Assembly: GCA_017456285.1 (NCBI GenBank)
Contig: JAFTJQ010000069.1
Location: forward strand, 3,380 to 67,379
Direction: 5' to 3'
Source: Lentisphaeria bacterium
Lineage (GTDB): Bacteria; Verrucomicrobiota; Lentisphaeria; Victivallales; Victivallaceae
DNA length: 64,000 bases
Both the position numbers and the translations under genes were made by a program. Each line of letters begins with the position of its first letter. The first letter of the stretch is position 1. The notes beneath the pieces are model-generated. The model was not told the origin of the DNA. It worked only from the letters and a program-made list of their open reading frames with translations, and made no database searches. Shown in pieces: positions 7,088 to 57,126 of the stretch.

Positions 7088-9634
7088 TTAATTAGCAACG
7101 ATATTTACCAAACGACCGGGGACACAAATTACCTTGCGAATAGTTTTAGTTGCAATTGCATCGGCGACAGCAGGATCACTCAAAGCAACTTTCTCCATCT
7201 CTTCTGCACTGAGATTTGCTCCCATCATCAAGCGGGCTTTTGCTTTGCCGCAAACTTGAACGAGAATTTCAACTTCGTCAATGACCAAATATTTCTCATC
7301 AAATTCAGGCCATGCTTCGTAAGCAATTGTATTCTCGTGTCCGAGTGTTTCCCACAATTCCTCGCCCAAGTGCGGTGCAAAACAGCTCAACATTTTAACA
7401 AACTTCTCTGCCATTTCACGGGGAAATTCACTTACAGTAGCATATTCATTGACGAAAACCATCATCTGACTGATTGCAGTATTGAAGTTCAAAGTCTCCA
7501 AATCCTCTGTAACTTTTTTCACTGTCGCATGGAGCAAACGGAGTTCATCTTTGGTAAGTTCACGGTCAATAATTTTAGCTTCACTAATCATGCGGTGTGA
7601 GCGTTTAATAAAGCGGAATACACCCTCAACGCCTTTGGTATTCCACGGTTTAACCGCTTCCAATGGCCCCATAAACATCTCATAGAGACGCATTGAATCG
7701 GCACCGTACTCCTTGATAACATCGTCAGGATTAACGACGTTACGCAGTGATTTAGACATTTTAGCAGGAAATTCAGTAAGTTCCTCTTTGGTATCCTTGT
7801 GGAAAGGCTTACCGTCGATAAATTCAACCTGATCAGTCGGAATCAAAACTCCACGAGTGTTTTTGTAAGAAATTCCGAGAATCATACCCTGATTAAGCAA
7901 TCGCTTAAAAGGCTCTTTGGTTGAAACCAATCCCAAATCATAAAGAACTTTGTGCCAGAAACGAGCGTAAAGCAAGTGCAATACCGCATGTTCCGCTCCG
8001 CCGACATACAAGTCAACCGGCATCCAATAACGTTCCTTTGCCAAATCCCATGCCGCATCGTCATTGCAGGGGTCAATATAACGCAAGTAATACCATCATG
8101 AACCTGCCCACTGCGGCATGGTATTATTTTCACGCAAGCCCTTGCGTCCGTCCTTGCCGACATAGTTAAGCCAAGTTTTTGCTTTGCTCAACGGAGGTTG
8201 ACCGTCCGCACTCGGTTTAAAATCTTCCATTTCAGGCGGGCAAACAGGAAGTTCGCTCTCATCGACCAACTCAATTGAACCATCCTCATAATGGATAATC
8301 GGGAAAGGCTCTCCCCAATAACGCTGACGGCTGAAAAGCCAATCACGAAGTTTGTATTTAACTGCAACTTTGCCCAAGTTGCGGGCTGCAAGCCATTCTG
8401 CGGCAGTTTTTTTAGAATCTTCAACATTGAGTCCATTCAAATTCAAACCGTCATCATTGGCACTATTAATCATTTTTCCGTCACCGGTATAACAGACTTT
8501 GCCTGCTAAAATTCCCTCAACATCAACGCCTGCTTCAATCGGTTCCATAATGCACTTAATCGGCAAACCGAACTTCTGTGCAAACTCAAAGTCACGAGTA
8601 TCGTGAGCAGGAACCGCCATAATCGCTCCGGTTCCGTATGAACTCAAAACATAATCGGCAATCCAAATCGGAATTTGAGTATTATTTACGGGGTTAATCG
8701 CATAAGCACCGGTGAAAACTCCGGTTTTAGTTGTAGCAAGTTCGGTGCGGTCAAGTTCGCTTTTTTGAGAAGCTTCATACTGATATTTTTTAACCGCATC
8801 CATCTGCTCTGGAGTGGTGATTTTTTCAACCAACTCATGTTCGGGTGAAAGCACCATGTAGGTTGCTCCGAAAAGGGTATCGCATCTGGTAGTATAAACA
8901 GTAATTTTTTCACCCTTTGTAGTCGTAAAAATTACCTCTGCACCGGTTGATTTGCCGATCCAGTTACGCTGCATTTCCTTGATTCCCTCGGGCCAATCAA
9001 GTTCGTCAAGGTCATTCAAAAGACGCTCTGCATATTCGGTAATTTTGAGCATCCACTGCTTCATCGGGCGTTTCTCAACTGGGTGATTTCCACGCTCTGA
9101 ACGGCCGTTAATAACCTCTTCATTGGCAAGCACTGTTCCCAATGCAGGACACCAATTCACCGCAACTTCGTCCAAGTATGCCAAACCTTTTTTGTGAAGC
9201 TGCATAAAAATCCACTGTGTCCACTTAAAGTATTTACTGTCGGTGGTATTAATTTCACGATCCCAATCGTAACTGAATCCCAAAGCCTGAATCTGACGAC
9301 GGAAGTTATTTACGTTTTTCTCGGTGGTAATTGAGGGGTGAGTTCCGGTTTCAACTGCATACTGTTCAGCGGGAAGTCCGAATGCGTCCCAGCCCATCGG
9401 ATGCAATACATTAAATCCTCTCATACGTTTGTAACGGCACAAAATGTCAGTTGCAGTATAACCTTCGGGGTGTCCGACATGCAAACCTGCTCCTGACGGA
9501 TACGGGAACATATCCAAAACGTAATATTTGGGTTTATCGGAGAAATCAACTGCCTTGAAAGTTTTATTCTCCAGCCAGTATTTCTGCCATTTTTTTTCGA
9601 TTTCGGTAAAATTATATTCTGCCATTTTCTTCAT
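7088..9634 (-). CDS. leuS: leucine--tRNA ligase, single reading frame interrupted by one in-frame TGA at 8096-8098 (ORF halves 8096..9634 and 7088..8086)
   Basis: N-half has [16 protein letters not shown] (HIGH-type motif). C-half has [11 protein letters not shown] (KMSKS). Across the junction the minus strand reads ATG CCG CAG TGG GCA GGT TCA TGA TGG TAT TAC TTG CGT TAT = MPQWAGS*WYYLRY, the conserved LeuS block. Confidence 0.9.
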
Positions 9635-54969: not shown

Positions 54970-57126
54970 TTACAATTTGATAAACTCTGTTCCTATCTGC
55001 AAAAGCATTCCTGCTTGATAGACCACCAAAGTGAAAATATAAGCCACTAAAAATAATCCGCCGGCCTCAATAAATGCCATCTTCCACGAATTTAACTCCC
55101 TTTTCAAAATCGCCAAAGTCGCTAAACAAGGAATCGACAGCAAACAGAAAAGCATAATACAAAACGCCTGAAGCGGTGTATAATTTTTTACCAACTGCGT
55201 TCTCAATGATTCTGATTCTTCATCAGCTTCACCCTCGGCATAGAGAATCCCCATTTGTGCCACAAAGACCTCTTTTGCCGCCAATGCTCCGATACCTGCG
55301 GTAGTGATTTTCCAATCAAATCCCAACGGGGCAAAAACCGGTTCGAGGAAACGCCCTACTCTGCCTGAAATGGTGTACTCCATTTTCTCTGCCAACTGTT
55401 CATTCTCCAGCACAGAAACAGTTTCTTCTTTGGCTTCATCGCTTAAAGAGGTATTTTTTTCAACTTCAGCAATTGCCGCATCATAATCTTTGGAGAAACT
55501 CTTTTTCTCCGGGAAAGTATTGCAAACATACAAAATTATGCTGGTTGCCAGAATAATTGTACCTGCTTTCTGCAAATACATTTTGCCTCTATCCCACATG
55601 TGGAGCATTAAACTTTTGAACGTCGGCATACGATATGGAGGTAATTCCATTAGGTAAATTTCGCCGTCGCCCTTGAAAATGGTACTTTTCATAATTAATG
55701 CCGCAAATAACGCCACCAAAACCCCGATTAAATAGATTATCCACATCATCAGCGGTTGATACTTCGCCGCAAAAAAGGCAGGGATTATCAAAGCATAAAT
55801 CGGCAATCTCGCTCCGCAGCTCATTAACGGCAAAACCAAAATCGTAATCTTTCTATCACGCTCTGATTCAATCGTTCTTGTCGCCATGATTGCCGGCACG
55901 GTACAGCCGAATCCCAAAACCAGCGGCACAAATGATTTCCCCTGAAGTCCGAACTTACGCATGATGCCATCCATCACAAATGCAGCTCTCGCCATGTAAC
56001 CTGACTCCTCAAGTATCGCAATCGCAAAAAAGAGAAAGAGAATATTCGGGAGAAAGACAATTACGCCCCCTACTCCGCCGATAATTCCGTCGGTAATTAA
56101 ATCACGGAAATACGGCAAAACATCGGGATTCCAAAACGACTTGATCAGATCACCGAGCCAGCCGAAAAATTCTTCAATGTAGCCCATCAATGGATCAGCA
56201 ACATTAAAGGTAAAGTAAAACGTCAAATACATAATCAGCAAAAATAACGGCAACCCCAAAAATTTATTGGTCATAACCAAGTCAATTTTATCAGAAATTT
56301 CCCGACGACGCTCCTGCGTAAAAGAGATTGAATTTCTGCACGCCCCTGCGAGCATGGCATAACGGCAATCCGCCATAAAGGTATCTGCCTCAATCGCATG
56401 TTTTTTTCGGAGATGAGTAATTTCATCGGCAAGTTGTACATGGACGGCTTTGAATTCATCAAGTGCCATTACGGAATTATCATTCTCAAGCAATTTAATA
56501 GCAAAAAATCTGGCAGGGATATGAGCATATTTAGCGACATTGAGTTCATCAATTTTTTCCGCGATCGCATTAATTGCATCATCGATGTCTTTGCCGTAAC
56601 TAAGCATCGGAGTTCCGTGATTATCCAAATTATTGAGCGTATAGTGCAATTTTTTCATCAAAGAAAAAATTCCGCTGTTTTTGCTTCCGACAGTTTTTAC
56701 AATTGAGGCACCGAAGTAGCGTTCAAGTTTATCAATATCAAACTTCAACCCCTTTTTATCCGCATCATCACTCATATTAAATGCCAATAACATCGGAATA
56801 TGCAATTCAGCCAGCTGGGTAGTCAAATACAAACTTCTCTGCGGAATTGTGCTGTCAATCACATTCAAAATCAAATCAATTCCGCTATTTGTCAATTCCT
56901 GAAATGCCACCTTTTCCTCTGGAGAACTTGAGGACAATGAATAAATTCCCGGCAAATCGATAATTTCAATCTCCATATCATTGAGTTTGAAAAATCCTGA
57001 TTTACTCTCGACAGTTACTCCTGAATAATTCCCGACATGCTGACGGGTACCGGTCAGGAGATTAAATATAGATGTTTTTCCGCAATTGGGATTACCTGCT
57101 AATACAATTCTAAATCTTTTTTTCAT
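54970..57126 (-). CDS. feoB: ferrous iron transport protein B
   Basis: G-domain IVLAGNPNCGKTSIFNLLTG..DLPGIYSL followed by a polytopic membrane domain. 718 aa. Confidence 0.92.
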   Translation of the reverse strand: MKKRFRIVLAGNPNCGKTSIFNLLTGTRQHVGNYSGVTVESKSGFFKLNDMEIEIIDLPGIYSLSSSSPEEKVAFQELTNSGIDLILNVIDSTIPQRSLYLTTQLAELHIPMLLAFNMSDDADKKGLKFDIDKLERYFGASIVKTVGSKNSGIFSLMKKLHYTLNNLDNHGTPMLSYGKDIDDAINAIAEKIDELNVAKYAHIPARFFAIKLLENDNSVMALDEFKAVHVQLADEITHLRKKHAIEADTFMADCRYAMLAGACRNSISFTQERRREISDKIDLVMTNKFLGLPLFLLIMYLTFYFTFNVADPLMGYIEEFFGWLGDLIKSFWNPDVLPYFRDLITDGIIGGVGGVIVFLPNILFLFFAIAILEESGYMARAAFVMDGIMRKFGLQGKSFVPLVLGFGCTVPAIMATRTIESERDRKITILVLPLMSCGARLPIYALIIPAFFAAKYQPLMMWIIYLIGVLVALFAALIMKSTIFKGDGEIYLMELPPYRMPTFKSLMLHMWDRGKMYLQKAGTIILATSIILYVCNTFPEKKSFSKDYDAAIAEVEKNTSLSDEAKEETVSVLENEQLAEKMEYTISGRVGRFLEPVFAPLGFDWKITTAGIGALAAKEVFVAQMGILYAEGEADEESESLRTQLVKNYTPLQAFCIMLFCLLSIPCLATLAILKRELNSWKMAFIEAGGLFLVAYIFTLVVYQAGMLLQIGTEFIKL

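Follow-up and report, generated by a model that had tools for sequence, protein, structure and literature searches.

A lone in-frame TGA in leuS of a Victivallaceae-like draft genome, probably a sequencing or assembly error

The leucine--tRNA ligase gene (leuS) in a draft genome of a gut bacterium is interrupted by a single in-frame TGA. Judged from the compared assemblies, this stop codon is very probably a sequencing or assembly error in a metagenome-assembled genome (MAG). The TGA is private to this one assembly, because two contigs of the same strain (L021 and L022) and an NCBI protein record (P0124) read cysteine at the same place, and the truncated product is on no other record. The stop is an artefact or, failing that, no more than a dead-end minority allele; the functional leuS of the organism is the TGC form either way.

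The window, meaning the whole stretch of 64,000 nucleotides that was analysed, corresponds to C62:3380-67379 of a 2.42-Mb draft genome with 92 contigs and 40% G+C. Completeness is estimated at 98.3% and contamination at 1.1%, and the longest contigs reach 140 kb. The closest named leucyl-tRNA synthetases (LeuRS), at about 80% identity, come from Victivallis vadensis and from Lentisphaeria/Victivallaceae MAGs, and the source is therefore an uncultured Victivallaceae-like gut bacterium.

The interrupted gene and its relatives

The original prediction described a TGA at 8096-8098 between two LeuS reading-frame halves in the same frame, and the deposited sequence does contain it. Translation of the minus strand from 9634 to 7088 meets exactly one internal stop, the TGA at codon 513. 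Within 8130..8060 the minus strand reads ATG CCG CAG TGG GCA GGT TCA TGA TGG TAT TAC TTG CGT TAT. The two halves of the open reading frame (ORF), 8096..9634 and 7088..8086, share one frame and are 512 and 332-335 codons long; a TTG lies four codons past the TGA. The coordinates of the gene, of its two altered sites and of two further interrupted genes of the same assembly are collected in Table 1.

Table 1. Location of leuS, its altered sites and the other interrupted genes
Feature	Position	Strand	Remarks
leuS (leucine--tRNA ligase)	9634..7088	minus	848 sense codons, otherwise intact; sole genomic copy
In-frame TGA, codon 513 of leuS	8098..8096	minus	block MPQWAGS*WYYLRY
Second leuS substitution unique to this assembly, 31 nt upstream of the TGA	8127	minus	ACT Thr > AAT Asn; plus-strand G>T
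In-frame TAG	C16:59556-59558		1,001-aa protein cut into ~773 + 225 aa; TGG (Trp) in three other assemblies
In-frame TAA	C21:16161-16163	minus	312-aa CN_hydrolase (PF00795); GAA (Glu) in two other assemblies

Apart from the stop, the gene had been described as intact, with about 848 codons, a HIGH-type motif and KMSKS. The translation agrees, with one further private missense change 31 nt away; both the HIGH-type motif (in the form HVGH) and KMSKS are found. The features of a bacterial-type LeuRS are all there: the motifs, the editing (CP1) and anticodon-binding domains, and full length. The domains were read on P0001, a near-identical protein of the same strain. P0001 is an intact LeuRS of 845 residues, encoded on both L021 and L022, and contains the Pfam domains PF00133, PF09334, PF13603 and PF08264. 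It differs from the window only in having cysteine for the stop and threonine for the asparagine nine codons upstream.

The leucine--tRNA ligase of Victivallis vadensis (P0015/P0018) is similar: the N-terminal half is 80% identical, and all four Pfam domains and the motifs are shared. Apart from the deposited TGA and the Thr>Asn replacement, the gene is that of an ordinary Victivallaceae/Lentisphaerota LeuRS.

The stop was also predicted to replace a Cys or Ser codon. The replaced residue is cysteine: codon 513 corresponds to TGC in 11 of the 11 relatives whose leuS DNA was read, one of them a genome of the same genus with 94% protein identity. At the protein level, all 16 homologous LeuRS sequences read have the block SCWYY, with cysteine. 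No stop in leuS was found among 30 related genomes. At the second altered site (8127), the 27 homologues read have threonine (20), valine (6) or leucine (1).

Same-strain assemblies and private substitutions

The most direct evidence comes from two metagenome contigs of the same strain in different samples, L021 (ENA ERZ28654190) and L022 (ERZ28653727), which are 99.99% and 99.95% identical to the window. The alignment of L021 to the contig of the window spans 22,538 bp and has two mismatches, both inside leuS. These are the TGC>TGA change at 8096 and the ACT>AAT change at 8127. Separated by 31 nt and each a G>T change when read on the plus strand, they are the only two bases at which the gene differs from the intact same-strain gene. 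L022 sides with L021 at both positions. The plus-strand base 8096 is thus T here and G, giving TGC for cysteine, in L021, L022 and all relatives checked.

Protein records show the same pattern. P0124 has cysteine and threonine, as P0001 does, and the partial protein P0121 has threonine at the second private site. The truncated LeuS half of 509 residues was looked up, and no other record carries it. A look-up of another protein encoded in the window (54973-57126) gave no record. A comparison with sister genomes had been set beforehand as a check on the prediction. With TGC in the same-strain contigs (99.95-99.99% identical) and in all relatives checked, it favours sequencing or assembly error among the explanations originally offered. 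As a separate observation, L021 is identical to the window over 1547-2312, and the sequence there is not private to this assembly.

Substitutions found in only one assembly were then counted over about 111 kb (contigs C62, C15, C11, C16 and C21), compared with same-strain contigs of four ENA assemblies at 99.7% identity or more. This genome has four private substitutions in the compared stretch, three of them G>T, and the chance that two of four land within 31 nt is 0.0036. For a larger sample, the scattered private substitutions of all five assemblies were pooled, leaving out two dense divergent patches. The pooled set (n=35) consists of 16 GC>TA, 9 AT>CG, 4 AT>TA, 6 GC>AT and 0 AT>GC changes. 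Transversions thus make up 29 of 35 (83%; P = 6e-5 against an expectation of 50%).

The private substitutions are also clustered. For fifteen of the 35, another private substitution of that assembly, usually in the same class, lies no more than 150 nt away; only 1.3 such cases would be expected, and 20,000 permutations never gave as many as 15. Coding effects look unselected among the 20 private substitutions that were classified, four of which are nonsense. Three of these four fall within 14.7 kb of L022 alone. The number of private changes tracks fragmentation, with 15 in ERZ28653727 and no scattered ones in ERZ28654190. Evolved polymorphism would be rich in transitions, mostly synonymous and free of pairing inside one read length. 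The private substitutions instead have an excess of transversions, cluster at distances shorter than a read and bear no mark of purifying selection, and so look like read error.

Several side observations concern the same comparison. The nonsense share of 4/20, pooled over the compared stretches of five assemblies, exceeds the 5-11% expected of random changes, but the sample is small and chance may account for it; among GC>TA changes alone, 10.7% would be expected to be nonsense in this genome. L022 (ERZ28653727) has private nonsense changes at positions matching 3824, 13595/13600 and 15903 of the window, and the genes broken there are a radical-SAM gene, an AMP-binding ligase and a pyruvate:ferredoxin oxidoreductase-like gene. 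One of these changes is paired with a missense change 5 nt off, the same error signature as in leuS.

The two patches left out of the pool are of a different kind. At C15:21604-21722, about 120 nt downstream of tRNA-Val(TAC), nine mixed substitutions within 120 nt separate ERZ28654190 from this genome and ERZ28018778. This patch looks like a truly variable or recombined segment rather than read error. A similar patch of four changes is found in ERZ28018778 at C15:32543-32555.

Two kinds of artefact are on record. Internal-stop pseudogenes can arise through effects of assembler, platform and coverage (Cooley & Wright 2024, BMC Genomics, PMC11017572). The leuS case resembles them in having a lone internal stop in a pristine conserved gene at which near-identical genomes differ, in the presence of further internal stops in the assembly, and in the rise of private substitutions with fragmentation. 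Unlike the genomes of that study, which are mostly from isolates, this leuS sits in a MAG.

The second kind comes from oxidative damage in library preparation, which produces G>T artefacts (Costello et al. 2013, NAR, PMC3616734). The GC>TA class likewise covers both changes in leuS and 16 of all 35 private substitutions. Such artefacts usually have a low frequency at each site and are expected to lose at good coverage. Unlike a purely oxidative set, the substitutions here also include nine AT>CG changes, from which we infer that base-calling error took part as well. The label of the ENA contigs, 'XIEF21-1', suggests that they derive from the samples of Xie et al. 2021, a study in which PCR-free libraries were sequenced as 150-bp NovaSeq reads and assembled with MEGAHIT and IDBA-UD (PMC8199421); the label is the one indication of this origin.

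In the proposed course of events, the organism's leuS would read TGC at codon 513 and encode an ordinary contiguous LeuRS. One faulty read or damaged DNA molecule, with two G>T miscalls 31 nt apart, probably entered the consensus at a thinly covered or ambiguous spot in the assembly. Of the two miscalls, one would have created the stop (TGC>TGA) and the other the amino-acid replacement (ACT>AAT). A local cause must be assumed, because 98% completeness and contigs of up to 140 kb argue against a very low mean coverage. Three points are seen directly: no other compared assembly has the change, a further change of like type accompanies it, and sibling assemblies commonly contain private changes of this sort.

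Alternative explanations of the stop codon

That the cause lies in the reads or the assembly, rather than in a rare real allele, is highly likely on these patterns. The rare allele is the rival that survives best, though it is unlikely. In this model, both G>T changes exist in the DNA of some cells in one sample's population, as a just-arisen nonsense allele of leuS that the assembler chose by chance. It could have originated through oxidative damage or one error-prone repair patch. The allele would be without function, and cells carrying it would not persist.

The TGA as deposited fits this model, and two changes 31 nt apart on one strand could reflect a single mutational event. In living cells, 8-oxoguanine that escapes repair likewise leaves a GC>TA signature, which the leuS changes would match. 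Against it, leuS is single-copy and release factor 2 (RF2) is present, and no other record has the allele. Moreover, clustered private transversions, AT>CG pairs included, occur in all sibling assemblies, with rates of around 1e-4 per base. Such rates are far above plausible mutation loads per cell and typical of read error.

Another model takes the UGA as real and decoded, either as selenocysteine (Sec), by a suppressor or near-cognate Trp or Cys tRNA, or under a reassigned code, so that a full-length LeuRS is made. This is very improbable. Its appeal is that the stop falls exactly on a Cys codon, as in Cys/Sec pairs, while the remainder of leuS is intact. In bacterial Sec recoding, for example at the UGA of fdhF, the codon is accompanied by a SECIS hairpin and read with the help of SelA, SelB, SelD and tRNA-Sec. 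The leuS gene resembles such cases in its in-frame UGA where homologues have cysteine; unlike them, it lacks every one of these partners among those searched for.

A search of the genome gave no match to selA, and the best matches to selD (35.9 bits, cut-off 125) and selB (183 bits, cut-off 242) fall below threshold; the latter is most likely EF-Tu. Among the 41 tRNAs found by ARAGORN there is neither a tRNA-Sec nor a tRNA with a UCA anticodon; at 98% completeness a gap could still conceal such a gene, though this is unlikely. The best match to the Rfam tRNA-Sec model RF01852 is a tRNA-Ser(UGA), whose acceptor stem has 7 bp rather than the 8 bp of tRNA-Sec and whose score of 46.6 bits is below the cut-off of 47.

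Downstream of the stop, no SECIS-like hairpin was found: the 79 nt from the UGA have a minimum free energy (MFE) of -12.9 kcal/mol, worse than the shuffle mean of -16.2 kcal/mol (z = +1.28). An Rfam scan 3' of the UGA gave nothing credible and no cis element. Selenocysteine recoding was rejected on these uniformly negative results, and with it went the option of Sec in place of Cys that had been raised at the outset. The suggested suppressor tRNA did not materialize either, as no UCA-anticodon tRNA was found.

The code itself appears standard. The prfB gene, which codes for RF2, is intact (509 bits). Among 1,249 long ORFs the stops are TAA in 911, TGA in 170 (14%) and TAG in 168, so that the early impression of TGA as a rare stop was roughly right. 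TGAT, the context of the leuS stop, is the commonest context of natural TGA stops in the genome. Reassignment of TGA to Trp or Gly (NCBI tables 4 and 25) was rejected, since RF2 is intact, TGA terminates and a UCA-anticodon tRNA is not found. All forms of decoding also have to contend with the TGC in a same-strain assembly that is 99.99% identical.

One form of decoding needs no dedicated machinery. The TGA could be real and dominant in the strain's population in one sample, with enough full-length LeuRS made through near-cognate reading of UGA by tRNA-Trp or tRNA-Cys, which is hardly to be expected. UGA-U is normally an efficient terminator. If true, an essential synthetase would live on UGA-U readthrough without dedicated recoding machinery.

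Finally, leuS could be naturally split, like the LeuRS of Aquifex with its two subunits, or be a decaying pseudogene with a backup copy. The two long ORFs in one frame (512 and 332-335 codons) and the TTG four codons after the stop would suit a split, but it is scarcely conceivable: the same-strain gene and all related genes are contiguous, and with a single base setting it apart from a 99.99% identical genome, a split enzyme would have had no time to evolve. Decay fares no better, as the paired missense change is the only other lesion and a backup is absent. The second leuS that had been proposed was not found by tblastn of the genome, which matched only other class I synthetases at 24-29% identity, and leuS is present in one copy per genome in 30 relatives.

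Other interrupted genes and consequences for the genome

The leuS stop is not the only one of its kind in this assembly. A genome-wide scan for pairs of ORFs in the same frame split by one stop gave 165 coding-like pairs, 109 of which have both halves of at least 90 codons; since the scan is blind to short halves, its count is a minimum. Almost all of the 109 pairs were set aside as adjacent genes with a start codon just past the stop, or as antisense ORFs. Only three resemble broken genes, namely leuS (TGA), C16:59556 (TAG) and C21:16161 (TAA). The breaks are not specific to TGA, because all three stop codons are represented.

The stop on C21 is a G>T change on the coding strand. Both this TAA and the TAG on C16 are also found in ERZ28654190, an assembly that shows no difference from this genome across 26 kb. 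The matching part of its contig stops right at the C21 site, with 109 unmatched bases beyond. ERZ28654190 and this genome may share their sample or their reads. The two stops could be real strain variants, or errors of a shared read set.

These observations bear on how the genome should be read. A lone stop in an essential single-copy gene of a MAG mimics recoding, and here assemblies of the same strain explain it. A practical test follows from the comparison: private changes mark consensus errors when most of them are transversions, when they come in pairs no further apart than a read and when they disregard codon position. If four private substitutions per roughly 111 kb are typical, a rough extrapolation gives private base errors of the order of 100 genome-wide. 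Any inference about metabolism or essential genes from this genome should expect several spurious internal stops. In annotation, leuS should be treated as intact and not as a pseudogene.
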